Numbered from the stretch's first letter, positions 1 through 46,527 are shown. The stretch is DNA of 56,999 bases from an uncultured Candidatus Saccharibacteria bacterium (GCA_964520225.1 CAZFNV010000005.1:1-56999), one strand, 5' to 3'. Made by a program: numbers and translations. Notes: generated from the sequence alone by a model not told the origin.

Positions 1-338
1 CATCGGTGGGGGTCAGGCTCTCACCTCCCCTAGACGTCATAGCCTTGGTAGTCCATTACACTACCAACTAGCTGATATCGCACAGGCCATTCCCAAAGCG
101 TTAAAACTTTCCTCTCGCGAGATATCGTGTATTAGTCCACCTTTCGGTGAATTATTCACGACTTTGGGGGATGTTCCTATGTATTACTACCTCGTTCGCC
201 ACTAATCAGTAACCCACATCCATACTTTCTTTGACTTGATGTAATCTCATCTCGGTCCGAATTTCAGTGGACTGATCCGTTCGACTTGCATGCCTTATCC
301 ACGCCGCCAGCGTTCATCCTGAGCTAGGATCAAACTCT
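1..338 (-). rRNA. rrs: 16S rRNA, 5' portion (gene continues off the left edge)
   Basis: Reverse complement of 318-338 is AGAGTTTGATCCTAGCTCAGG. It is followed by GATGAACGCTGGCGGCGTG...CATGCAAGTCGAACGG and GGCGAACGAGGTAGTAATAC, the canonical SSU 5' domain. Confidence 0.9.
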
Positions 339-609
339 AACTAAAAGTTAGCCTTTCGGCCGATCGTCAAAAGACGACCAGAACGAAACAAAACAAAAAA
401 CCCTAGCTCTAAATTATTATTTACTCAAGAAATAAATCGACTTGCATTTATGTTCTCAATTATTAATTCATAGAATTGTCAAAGAAACTCATCTCTCTCC
501 TTTGCGAGGAAAGAAAAACGCCTATCCCATACAGGAAAGCGCTGTGGAGCAGTCTAGCAAAATCTTAGATTCAAGTCAACCCCGTCGCTCGCGAGCGACA
601 GGGTCAAGC

Positions 610-45082: not shown

Positions 45083-45214
45083 TTAACGCCCCGAGAAACA
45101 AGAATAAAATTACTACTCAAACATATTGAAATTCTACAATAAAATGTTAGAATTGGCTAGTAAGAGTGTTTATAAATAAAAAGGCATAGCCAAAGCTATC
45201 CCTTTTTTCCTCTG

Positions 45215-45502
45215 CGCGAGCGAGCGGATTTGAACCGCCGACCTCTTCCGTGCACGTAATCCCTTATTTTCATAAAGGCGTGGACTATATCTTCACCATA
45301 AACTTTCGCTTTTAGGTGCTTTGGTATCTAGTCTCTACGGCGCCCCCGATACAAAATCGGGGTTCCCTCGGTATTCGCATACTCCGACCCTTGGTCGAAG
45401 GTTAGCCTTCACCGATATCCCAAAGAGTTTCAATCCGCCATTTCGGCGGAAAGCTGCAGTAAATCTACAGGGAAGCGCTCTAACCAGCTGAGCTACGCCC
45501 GC
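45215..45502 (-). tRNA. tRNA-Asp(GUC) interrupted by a group I intron in the anticodon loop
   Basis: Exon 1 (45502-45467) is GCGGGCG TA GCTC AGCTGGTTA GAGC G CTTCC CTGT. Exon 2 (45252-45215) is CAC GGAAG AGGTC GGCGG TTCAAAT CCGCT CGCTCGC G. Spliced, the loop is CUGUCAC and the discriminator is G73. Confidence 0.75.
45253..45466 (-). ncRNA. Group I intron (IC3-like, ORF-less, about 214 nt)
   Basis: P1 is CUGU|AG-auuua-CUGCAG, with a U.G pair at the 5' splice site. P2 is CCGCC-gaaau-GGCGG. P3 pairs CUUUGG with CCAAAG. The core CCGUAGAGACUAGAUACCAAAGCACCUAAAAGCGAAAGUUUAUGG closely parallels the Azoarcus tRNA-Ile intron core as I recall it (GUAGAGACUAGACGGCACCCACCUAAGGCAAACGCUAUGG). The intron ends in G. 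Confidence 0.75.
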
Positions 45503-46148
45503 GTATTTTTATATACTTTTCAAACTTTTCCTTCTTTCTCTCAAGAAATAAGGAACATCTACTATTATACATAATTTTGTATAAAATCAAAGAGTCTCCT
45601 GTACTGTATTTTAGGTCAAAACCTCCTTTCTTTTTTATTAGAGAACCACCTGCAATACCCATCCTCATCAATCTATCTTTAAGAGTGGCTAAAAATTTTT
45701 CACTCCCGGATGTAAAATAAGCACTCAACGTGAATGTTCGGCCTTTATTTTTGCAACCAGCCCAAACTCCCCCATCGCCATCAAAATATCCCCGAATAAA
45801 ATTCGATAAGAATTTGTCTGGAATCTTAGGTAATAATACTGTTTTACTTTTTCTCTCAGTCATACCGAGCCTCAGTAAATCTTCACACATTTCTTTACTT
45901 CCTATCTGTAGCCTATAAGAGGTTTTCCATTTTCCACTTCTTTTTCTTTTAGAAATAACGTGAGTAGAACTCACAGCAGTCTTAATCTTTTCCAATATAT
46001 CCTTGTCATTTATCTGCAAAGACCAAAACCATGTATCTCTCTTAGTATGAATCAAATTTCCATCTGCTATCAAAAAACCAAAAATATAGGCCATAACACA
46101 TGTCCATTGCTTGAAGAAATTTTTATTTATTTTTCGGTGTATAGGCAC
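45480..46148 (-). CDS. LAGLIDADG homing endonuclease (double-motif, free-standing)
   Basis: It carries two dodecapeptide motifs, YIFGFLIADGNL and IRGYFDGDGGVW. The 3' end runs 23 nt into tRNA-Asp exon 1. The start is either the GTG at 46148 or the ATG at 46094. Confidence 0.85.
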   Translation of the reverse strand: MPIHRKINKNFFKQWTCVMAYIFGFLIADGNLIHTKRDTWFWSLQINDKDILEKIKTAVSSTHVISKRKRSGKWKTSYRLQIGSKEMCEDLLRLGMTERKSKTVLLPKIPDKFLSNFIRGYFDGDGGVWAGCKNKGRTFTLSAYFTSGSEKFLATLKDRLMRMGIAGGSLIKKKGGFDLKYSTGDSLILYKIMYNSRCSLFLERKKEKFEKYIKIRGRSSAG

Positions 46149-46202: not shown

Positions 46203-46278
46203 TGGTGTCGGCGGGAAGACTTGCACTTCCGACACTGGGCTTATGAGTCCCATGCTCTACTACCTGAGCTACGCCGAC
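46203..46278 (-). tRNA. tRNA with CAU anticodon (elongator Met or Ile2), CCA encoded
   Basis: Reverse complement is GTCGGCG TA GCTC AGGTAGTA GAGC A TGGGA CTCATAA GCCCA GTGTC GGAAG TGCAAGT CTTCC CGCCGAC A CCA. The T-loop is unusual (UGCAAGU) and there is an A31/G39 mismatch. Confidence 0.75.
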
Positions 46279-46304
46279 ATAAAGCAAACTGCTTTACTTT
46301 ATTA

Positions 46305-46387
46305 GGGTGGCGTTACCACCGACTAAAAGCATGAGGACGGTGCGAGGCCGTAAGGCCGAGCCGTCCTTTCTACCAAGGCAAACACCC
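46305..46387. other. 83-nt GC-rich three-stem element of unknown class between divergent tRNA genes
   Basis: A closing stem pairs GGGTG with CACCC. Inside are hairpin GGTGG-cgtta-CCACC and hairpin GGACGG-tgcga-GGCC-gtaa-GGCC-gag-CCGTCC, which has a GNRA loop. Confidence 0.25.
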
Positions 46388-46406
46388 AAGAAATATATCA
46401 GAAAAC

Positions 46407-46441: not shown

Positions 46442-46512
46442 AGCGGGATAGAGAAGAGGCATCTCGTAAGGCTCATAACCTTAAGACCCACGTTCGATTC
46501 GTGGTCCCGCAA
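46442..46512 (+). tRNA. tRNA with CAU anticodon and an A1xA72 mismatch (initiator-like acceptor end)
   Basis: AGCGGGA TA GAGA AGAGGCA TCTC G TAAGG CTCATAA CCTTA AGAC CCACG TTCGATT CGTGG TCCCGCA A. The 3' end ...CCCGCAA parallels that of E. coli tRNA-fMet. Confidence 0.7.
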
Positions 46513-46527
46513 CAAGTTTAAGCTAAT

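Follow-up and report, generated by a model that had tools for sequence, protein, structure and literature searches.

A probable group I intron in a tRNA-Asp(GUC) gene of a Saccharibacteria genome, preceded by a predicted LAGLIDADG endonuclease gene that ends within the tRNA

We analysed a stretch of 56,999 nucleotides (the window) from an uncultured Candidatus Saccharibacteria bacterium (CAZFNV010000005.1:1-56999). On its minus strand, at 45502..45215, lies a tRNA-Asp(GUC) gene that is interrupted between U35 and C36, within the anticodon, by a group I intron of 214 nucleotides (nt). The insert is very probably a compact ribozyme without an open reading frame (ORF), of the IC3-like, Azoarcus-type kind found in bacterial tRNA genes. 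The gene just upstream is a predicted LAGLIDADG homing endonuclease, and its last seven codons and TAG stop (45482..45480) lie inside the 5' exon of the tRNA. This overlapping gene was absent from the first-pass annotation, which had been made from the sequence alone. In the order of transcription, the features are:

46203..46278, minus strand: tRNA-Met(CAU), first in the conserved order tRNA-Met, endonuclease gene, tRNA-Asp (found by ARAGORN and Rfam)
45480..46148, minus strand: predicted free-standing LAGLIDADG homing-endonuclease gene, 222 amino acids, GTG start (Pfam LAGLIDADG_3; homologues at the same position in many Patescibacteria)
45467..45502, minus strand: tRNA-Asp 5' exon, 36 nt, with the acceptor strand, D arm, 5' strand of the anticodon stem, and C32-U33-G34-U35 (ARAGORN in intron mode; the stems covary in 28 species)
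45253..45466, minus strand: probable group I intron, 214 nt, ORF-less, with A45466 as its first nucleotide and G45253 as the terminal guanosine, omega-G (Rfam RF00028, ARAGORN, and covariation)
45215..45252, minus strand: tRNA-Asp 3' exon, with C36-A37-C38, the 3' strand of the anticodon stem, variable loop, T arm, acceptor strand, and G73 (ARAGORN)

With introns allowed, ARAGORN places a tRNA-Asp(gtc) at c[45214..45502], gives its intron a length of 214 nt, and reports the junction cctgt-intron-cacgg. The 5' exon (45502..45467) reads GCGGGCG-UA-GCUC-AGCUGGUUA-GAGC-G-CUUCC-CUGU, which is a tRNA 5' half whose last base is U35. The 3' exon (45252..45215) reads CAC-GGAAG-AGGUC-GGCGG-UUCAAAU-CCGCU-CGCUCGC-G, from C36 through G73 (position 45215), and does not encode CCA. 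Once spliced, the anticodon loop is CUGUCAC, and G45253 is the sole G that gives a loop of seven nucleotides. ARAGORN draws the spliced product as a cloverleaf, its stems covary, and it has the anticodon GUC along with G73, C38, and G10. (These three bases belong to the Asp identity set of E. coli.) The junction, the host tRNA, the length of the insert, the spliced loop, and G73 had all been called in the first-pass annotation, and both the intron-aware search and our reading of the sequence agree with it.

The Rfam model for group I introns (Intron_gpI, RF00028) matches the minus strand at 45476..45261. The match extends over the full model (positions 1-253) and scores 50.6 bits, against a gathering score of 50 bits (E = 5.3e-12 when the local stretch is searched and 5.8e-10 for the window as a whole). 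The first-pass annotation had proposed a group I intron and had suggested this covariance model and an intron-aware tRNA finder as checks; both searches, along with covariation in 28 species, bear the proposal out. Other settings do not report the split gene: it is missing from the results of ARAGORN on the window without introns and of Rfam on the whole window at the gathering threshold with default filters. As the first-pass annotation also stated, neither ARAGORN nor Rfam finds a second tRNA-Asp within the 57-kb window, and Rfam finds no second group I match there. The exact 3' exon (35 nt) had 0 matches in species-representative genomes. In closed genomes of the candidate phyla radiation (CPR), group I intron-bearing tRNAs are hard to detect and are needed for the complete 20-amino-acid set (Lui et al., 2021, PMC8172020). 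Because of this precedent, and because there is no other tRNA-Asp in the window, the split gene is likely to be the sole copy.

We assigned the helices of the intron by hand, guided by the Rfam alignment and by the seed alignment of Williams (2020, bioRxiv 10.1101/2020.01.27.920355). Counts of sequences and of covarying pairs in the following list refer to an alignment of 28 sequences that is described below, and a vertical bar marks the splice site.

45454..45470, minus strand: P1 hairpin, CUGU|AG / CUGCAG, in which U35.G is the wobble pair of the 5' splice site and GCAG the internal guide (five inner pairs, U.G among them, are the same in 28/28)
45434..45450, minus strand: P2, UCCGCC/GGCGGA with a GAAAU cap (6/6 pairs with compensatory changes)
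45420..45425, minus strand: P3 5' strand, CUUUGG, partner of 45319..45324 (4/6 pairs covary; 100% of cells paired)
45368..45415, minus strand: P4 (UCGGU/ACCGA), P5, and the P5a hairpin (the first pair of P4 is U-A in 15 sequences and A-U in 13; 8/8 P5a pairs covary)
45339..45367, minus strand: P6 (GG/CC) and P6a (CCCCGAU/AUCGGGG) (P6 is invariant; 6/7 P6a pairs covary)
45329..45335, minus strand: P7 5' strand, G-A-GACUA, inside GUAGAGACUAGA (invariant in 28/28; the same as the Azoarcus seed string)
45319..45324, minus strand: P3 3' strand, CCAAAG (from the alignment)
45294..45318, minus strand: P8, CACC-UAA...UAU-GGUG, with a CCUAA/UAUGG receptor-like motif and a GAAA tetraloop (3/4 outer pairs covary; the motif is common to Azoarcus)
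45282..45287, minus strand: P7 3' strand, UAGUCC, after J8/7 AAGAUA (invariant; consistent with the Rfam alignment)
45253..45281, minus strand: P9.0 (AC/GU, abutting omega-G), P9 (CCUUUAU-GAAA-AUAAGGG), and omega-G (one P9.0 pair is C-G, U-A, or U-G in 19, 5, and 3 sequences; 6/7 P9 pairs covary)

In P5, a G-C and a C-G pair flank a CUAA/UAUG receptor-like motif, and the P5a hairpin follows. The two strands of P7 (G-A-GACUA/UAGUCC) can pair and would form a pseudoknot with P3. There is no ORF in the 214 nt of the intron. Much of this structure was anticipated in the first-pass annotation, which described P1 with its U.G pair, P2, P3, an Azoarcus-like core, and a 3' extension with a GAAA-capped hairpin and a terminal G. 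The U.G pair is found in 28/28 sequences and P2 and P3 covary; the hairpin corresponds to P9 and the terminal G to omega-G; and the strings GUAGAGACUAGA, CACCUAA, and UAUGG are present both in the Azoarcus seed (Williams, 2020) and in the window.

To compare the intron with its relatives, we scanned one genome per species for the 18-mer CCGTAGAGACTAGATACC, which covers J6/7, P7, and the start of P3'. This gave at least 120 loci (L001-L120), nearly all of them in metagenome-assembled genomes of Patescibacteria (CPR). Among the loci listed, 27 further species have the identical tRNA-Asp junction (CCUGU|AG...G|CACGG), and the closest intron is from a "Patescibacteria group bacterium" (L013, 86% identity). 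We aligned the window intron with these 27, so that each of the 28 sequences is from a different species. In this alignment, the P1-P9.0 model and the cloverleaf pair 94.5% of cells, as compared to 38-44% if the partners are slid by 1-3 columns. Both sides change in 53 of the 86 pairs (compensatory changes). The covariation score is 0.431, versus 0.167 for shuffles, and none of 500 shuffles reached the observed values. Compensatory changes occur in P2, P3, P4, P5, P5a, P6a, P8, and P9, and are heavy in P2, P3, P5a, P6a, P8, and P9. RNAalifold, without a supplied structure, recovers all of the helices of the model but P7 (a pseudoknot, which is beyond its scope). The U.G pair, omega-G, the core strings, and the GAAA loops of L2 and L9 are invariant or nearly so, and all of the core elements are intact in the window copy. 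This pattern of conservation is that of a ribozyme under selection rather than of a decaying insert. The intron is real and probably functional, and its likeliest function would be guanosine-initiated self-splicing that restores the only visible tRNA-Asp.

We infer the steps of splicing from the sequence and the covariation, with the chemistry that has been established for the Azoarcus pre-tRNA-Ile. The tRNA-Asp is probably co-transcribed with the upstream tRNA-Met and the LAGLIDADG ORF. In the transcript, P1 would form between the guide GCAG and C32-U35 in the anticodon loop, where U35 and G make a wobble pair. An external guanosine bound in P7 would attack 3' of U35. Omega-G, placed by P9.0, would take over the guanosine site, and the free 3'-OH of U35 would attack 5' of C36. 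The expected outcome is the loop CUGUCAC, restored in a normal cloverleaf with G73. The anticodon stem would keep the two exons together, and such tethering is known for pre-tRNA introns (Zaug et al., 1993, as cited in PMC3984707).

Which tRNAs host this type of intron depends on where the splice is placed. Among the at least 120 loci, ARAGORN labels 31 hosts as Asp, 24 as "Thr(tgt)", 10 as Tyr, 9 as Asn, and 7 as "Ser(tga)", plus others. The "Thr" and "Ser" calls splice two bases early, so that U-1 would fall within P1 as part of a Watson-Crick pair. If the splice is placed at the U.G wobble (CUGU|), "Thr(tgt)" becomes Asn(GUU) and "Ser(tga)" becomes Tyr(GUA), and the relabelled tRNA bodies (UCCG...CGGA with G73) are the bodies that ARAGORN calls Asn. 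We favour Asn and Tyr over Thr and Ser because of the U.G wobble in P1 and because of the tRNA bodies (UCC...GGA, G73). (The two splice registers arise from CU-GU...UG-UAA; examples are L007, L009, L017, L022, L039-L041, and L075.) The "Thr.2Ug" class of Williams (2020), with the seed Pgr210 and the P1 cuguc/GGCAG, may have the same ambiguity of register. By the CUGU| rule, the hosts are Asp in 34 loci, Asn in 24, and Tyr in 23, with the rest unresolved; we discarded the rule-based "His" calls as artefacts of the search for the 3' splice site. So, tRNA-Asp is the commonest host of this intron subclass among the Patescibacteria loci listed (approximately 34 species). In these loci, the subclass marked by CCGUAGAGACUAGAUACC is found almost exclusively after C32-U33-G34-U35 (that is, in Asp, Asn, and Tyr), and its guide GCAG is constant. 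We infer that one intron type could spread over these three hosts because the guide reads only the shared bases C32-U35, and the constancy of the guide suggests spread between tRNAs that share these four loop bases.

The same 18-nt intron core is also present in seven IMG/VR contigs that are classed as viral (L428-L434, 60-485 kb). Five of the seven have other tRNA genes nearby, and one (L428) has a tRNA-Met about 0.9 kb upstream, like the cellular module. These may be large phages with intron-bearing tRNAs, or misclassified CPR contigs.

We now turn to the ORF that precedes the split gene (46148..45480), which is predicted to be a LAGLIDADG homing endonuclease with two LAGLIDADG motifs. Pfam LAGLIDADG_3 matches it with 53.2 bits (cut-off 22.5; 3.7e-14) in two stretches, and the gene is intact. 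The motifs FLIADG and YFDGDG (D29/G30 and D123-G-D125-G126), and with them both catalytic aspartates, are invariant in 19 homologues. In a profile search of the PDB, the nearest entry was 2DCH (2.3e-8), and I-HjeMI and I-AniI were also matched (I-AniI weakly). A single-sequence search of the PDB was uninformative (E = 0.2), and NCBIfam gave intein-bearing proteins only, far below the cut-offs.

Homologues of this gene are common at the same place. Of the 34 intron-bearing Asp loci, 16 have a full-length homologue (38-67% identity) that ends at the 5' end of the tRNA-Asp and 8 more have fragments (24/34 in total), as compared to 0/24 of the Asn-hosted intron loci. In 11 of the 16 resolved homologues, as in the window, the stop codon is within the tRNA, mostly at U8-A9-G10. 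Processing of the tRNA by RNase P would strip the stop codon from the endonuclease mRNA, and this might hold expression low. A search from the protein side of species-representative genomes found at least 499 relatives, mostly in Patescibacteria. Among the best 79 loci, 71 directly precede a tRNA-Asp, of which 27 are intron-bearing and 44 are intron-less, and a tRNA-Met on the same strand lies upstream of the endonuclease gene in 55 of the 79. (At many related loci, the endonuclease gene is preceded by two CAU tRNAs.) Viral relatives (only 29-40% identity) adjoin a tRNA-Asp in 0 of 46 cases.

Intact, decayed, and absent copies of the endonuclease gene are all found at this one conserved genomic site. 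Decayed copies (L021, L024, L028, L030, L072, L112, and L117) lie beside intact intron-bearing tRNA-Asp genes and include frameshifted genes, split genes, and C-terminal stubs of 33-101 amino acids. Where remnants are all that is left, the spacer from tRNA-Met to tRNA-Asp measures about 105-140 nt, and in the empty sites the two tRNA genes are 41-77 nt apart. The final ~100 nt of the gene tends to survive as this spacer. The mix of intact, decayed, and absent copies is indirect support for the predicted roles in cleavage and homing. It appears that the LAGLIDADG gene is a separate selfish element of the tRNA-Met/tRNA-Asp spacer, with or without the intron. A literature search found no paper on the arrangement of tRNA-Met, LAGLIDADG gene, and tRNA-Asp; apparently, the fusion of a LAGLIDADG gene to tRNA-Asp is widespread but undescribed.

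Are the endonuclease and the intron linked? One possibility, which supplements the self-splicing explanation and does not replace it, is trans homing, or hitch-hiking: the free-standing endonuclease would cut tRNA-Met/tRNA-Asp loci that lack its gene, and repair would copy the gene, the 5' exon, and the intron 36 bp downstream, with the ORF-less intron as a passenger. The tRNA-Asp-fused gene and the intron of these Patescibacteria would then form one composite mobile unit that homes in trans in a cellular genome. We consider this a tentative proposal that may well be wrong. In its favour are the fusion of the gene to the tRNA, with the stop codon inside the 5' exon, and the difference between Asp-hosted and Asn-hosted introns that was given above. 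The decayed and truncated copies are also as expected for the cycle of a selfish homing element, and trans or collaborative homing has been established in phages (PMC3984707, PMC2790892).

A further point for trans homing comes from a sample of one Patescibacteria tRNA-Asp sequence type that was selected regardless of intron or endonuclease. (A generic tRNA-Asp 5'-exon pattern was unusable as a baseline, as its matches were mostly in Alphaproteobacteria and were all intron-less, and we replaced it by this type-specific pattern.) The sample has 109 intron-less and 9 intron-bearing loci (about 8% with the intron). About 4 of 8 assessable intron-bearing loci, and about 5 of 95 assessable intron-less ones, have a motif encoding GYFDGDG (hypergeometric P ~ 0.002); these counts are approximate, because we tabulated the pattern matches manually and assessed loci at the ends of contigs visually. 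Two more of the intron-bearing loci have endonuclease remnants. However, the test ignores phylogeny, and shared descent in a few clades could produce the association. The association fits either shared descent or co-conversion of the intron during homing of the endonuclease (trans homing, as for T4 mobE and I-TevIII, PMC2790892).

Also against trans homing, 44 of the 71 resolved endonuclease loci have an intron-less tRNA-Asp, and the endonuclease gene is as often intact beside these (40/44) as beside intron-bearing genes (24/27). This implies that the intron is neither needed for protection of the host nor always transferred along with the gene. For the same reason we reject strict collaborative homing, in which the intron shields its host from the endonuclease, although this argument is indirect.

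A second possibility is that the intron in tRNA-Asp depends on the LAGLIDADG protein as a maturase for its folding and splicing. LAGLIDADG maturases are known (for example, I-AniI, which is a weak match to our profile in the PDB), and the endonuclease gene and the intron are adjacent and probably co-transcribed. Nevertheless, this is very unlikely. Most of the homologues (44/71) are beside intron-less genes; other intron-bearing loci have only a remnant of the endonuclease gene or no such gene at all (L024, L030, L060, L061, and L064); and the same intron subclass in tRNA-Asn has 0/24 such neighbours. On these grounds we reject the maturase model. Also, the conservation of both catalytic acidic residues fits a nuclease, and the core of the intron is complete and compact, like that of the self-splicing Azoarcus intron.

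Third, a dead intron could be sitting in a tRNA pseudogene, with tRNA-Asp supplied by a gene outside the window. Several observations leave room for this, or weigh more generally against a functional self-splicing intron. The Rfam score is only 0.6 bits over the gathering threshold, and a scan with default filters misses the match. The window covers 57 kb of the genome only, and an intron-less tRNA-Asp could exist outside it. P1, P6, and P7 do not vary in the alignment, so that covariation neither supports nor tests these helices. J3/4 is GAU instead of the AAA of the classical IC3 seeds, and no P10 pairing with the 3' exon is apparent. However, the core elements of the window copy are all intact, the family is under strong structural selection across species, the exons give a canonical cloverleaf with the Asp identity bases, and intron-bearing tRNAs are usually needed to complete the tRNA sets of CPR genomes (Lui et al., 2021). 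A dead intron is very unlikely, and a functional intron remains the best explanation. Finally, a chance resemblance, in which two tRNA-like halves happen to flank a structured spacer, has nothing but the borderline bit score in its favour and is ruled out by the window-wide E value of 5.8e-10, by the identical junction in at least 27 other species, and by the 53 compensatory pairs.

The surroundings of the module have a few features of their own. Directly 3' of the tRNA-Asp, at 45180..45213 (minus strand), the hairpin GGGAUAGC-UUUG-GCUAUGCC (with one mismatch) precedes a U-rich run. This hairpin resembles a terminator, although the terminator scan did not call it, and it accounts for weak Rfam hits to the plus strand at the same positions. 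In the scan for promoters and terminators, no minus-strand promoter was convincing, either for the endonuclease gene or for the tRNA. Upstream, two tRNA genes with CAU anticodons lie back to back (46203..46278 on the minus strand and 46442..46513 on the plus strand), each of which may be an initiator, an elongator, or a lysidine-modified tRNA-Ile2. Between these divergent tRNA-Met(CAU) genes is a G+C-rich segment (46279..46400, minus strand) with the nested hairpins GGACGG...CCGUCC, GGUGG-UAAC-GCCACC, and AAAGCA...UGCUUU (minimum free energy of −40.1 kcal/mol, z-score −2.4), which has no Rfam match. At the edge of the window (1..345, minus strand) is the cut 5' end of a 16S rRNA gene, in which a 60-nt stretch stands against 10 model positions (around 80-90) in the Rfam alignment.

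What do these results mean? For annotation, default tRNA finders and default Rfam filters miss the split gene, so the genome would be wrongly scored as lacking tRNA-Asp, and intron-aware callers mislabel its sister genes (Thr for Asn and Ser for Tyr). Biologically, the intron contributes little on its own beyond one more member of a catalogued class. One lead is that a single intron subclass has colonised tRNAs that share C32-U33-G34-U35 (Asp, Asn, and Tyr), which fits a four-base guide. The less expected feature, and the one worth following up, is the endonuclease gene, with its fusion to the tRNA and its possible link to the intron. The statistical association of this gene with the intron could allow the origin of mobile introns to be tested in cellular genomes, and the composite unit, if it exists, would represent a natural intermediate in the acquisition of endonuclease genes by introns.

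How does the window intron compare with known systems? The first-pass annotation considered an Asp host to be unusual, and a CPR-type genome as well, as the bacterial hosts that it knew of were Leu, fMet/Ile, and Arg. This view is not borne out. Williams (2020) expanded the four classical intron-bearing bacterial tRNAs to 21 cases, with a seed alignment that holds Wba81.Asp.4Ug, Mba143.Tyr.4Ug, Pam37.Asn.4Ug, and Pgr210.Thr.2Ug; group I introns in CPR tRNAs were noted by Lui et al. (2021); and tRNA-Asp is the commonest host among our loci. The window intron has the features of the Asp.4Ug class: a tRNA-Asp host, insertion after position 4 of the anticodon loop, U at −1, and omega-G. Wba81.Asp.4Ug is similar in these respects (with the GUC anticodon, and insertion after U35) and is likewise ORF-less and from a metagenome-assembled genome. 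It differs in its P1 (CUGUC/GGCAG), and Williams (2020) is silent on any adjacent endonuclease gene. Over aligned positions, the window intron is 78% identical to Mba143.Tyr.4Ug, 75% to the Azoarcus intron, 75% to Pgr210, and 69% to Wba81.Asp.4Ug. Because it is closer to the Tyr.4Ug seed (78%) than to the Asp.4Ug seed (69%), there would be at least two intron lineages at the same Asp site. Thus, by sequence comparison, neither the host nor the site is new, and the window copy is a further member of the catalogued Asp.4Ug class and a second lineage at the site.

Mba143.Tyr.4Ug and the Asn- and Tyr-hosted members share with the window intron the P3 CUUUGG/CCAAAG, the strings GAUA(A/U)CGGUGAA, CCGUAGAGACUAGAUACC, and AAGAUAUAGUCC, a P1 of the form CUGU|N...N'GCAG, and the site after U35. 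The Asn- and Tyr-hosted members differ in the host tRNA and in N36, which is A or U instead of C, and the Asn hosts are without a LAGLIDADG neighbour.

IC3 introns have a compact P1-P9 fold, GNRA-capped P2 and P9, receptor motifs in P8 and P5, and an Azoarcus- or Anabaena-like core. The window intron has GAAA in L2 and L9, CCUAA/UAUGG-type motifs, and its 75% identity to Azoarcus, but J3/4 is GAU and not AAA. In the Azoarcus intron, L2 reportedly docks into P8 and L9 into P5 by tetraloop-receptor contacts (in the crystal structure of Adams et al., 2004), and the window intron has loops and receptor-like motifs that match this L2/P8 and L9/P5 pattern. The Azoarcus pre-tRNA-Ile intron is also in the anticodon loop, is of similar size (205 versus 214 nt), and self-splices in vitro (PMC13168695). 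It has GAAA loops in P2 and P9 and shares with the window GUAGAGACUAGA and the P8 motif CACCUAA...UAUGGUG. It differs in its insertion site (it follows position 36 of a CAU anticodon, whereas the window intron follows U35 of GUC), in J3/4, and in the J8/7-P7 region (AAGGCAUAGUCC in Azoarcus versus AAGAUAUAGUCC in the window).

The introns of cyanobacterial and plastid tRNA-Leu(UAA) and of tRNA-fMet (with I-Ssp6803I) are likewise bacterial group I introns in the anticodon loop, with U at −1, but they have other host tRNAs and other positions. The endonuclease of the fMet intron is encoded within it and is of another enzyme family, whereas in the window the endonuclease gene is outside the intron, upstream of the 5' exon. 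As indicated by the reference list of PMC3984707, the fMet intron illustrates that homing endonucleases can target the anticodon regions of tRNA genes.

Phages offer a parallel in their collaborative or trans homing (F-CphI and the psbA intron; T4 mobE and I-TevIII), where a free-standing endonuclease gene lies beside a gene with an ORF-less or defunct intron (PMC3984707, PMC2790892). Those cases are from phage genomes, involve other endonuclease families, and have the intron insertion site as the target. In contrast, the window is from a cellular genome, its endonuclease gene is of the LAGLIDADG type and is fused to a tRNA gene at the 5' end, and intact copies of that gene are common beside intron-less alleles, which argues against a mechanism identical to that of the phages.

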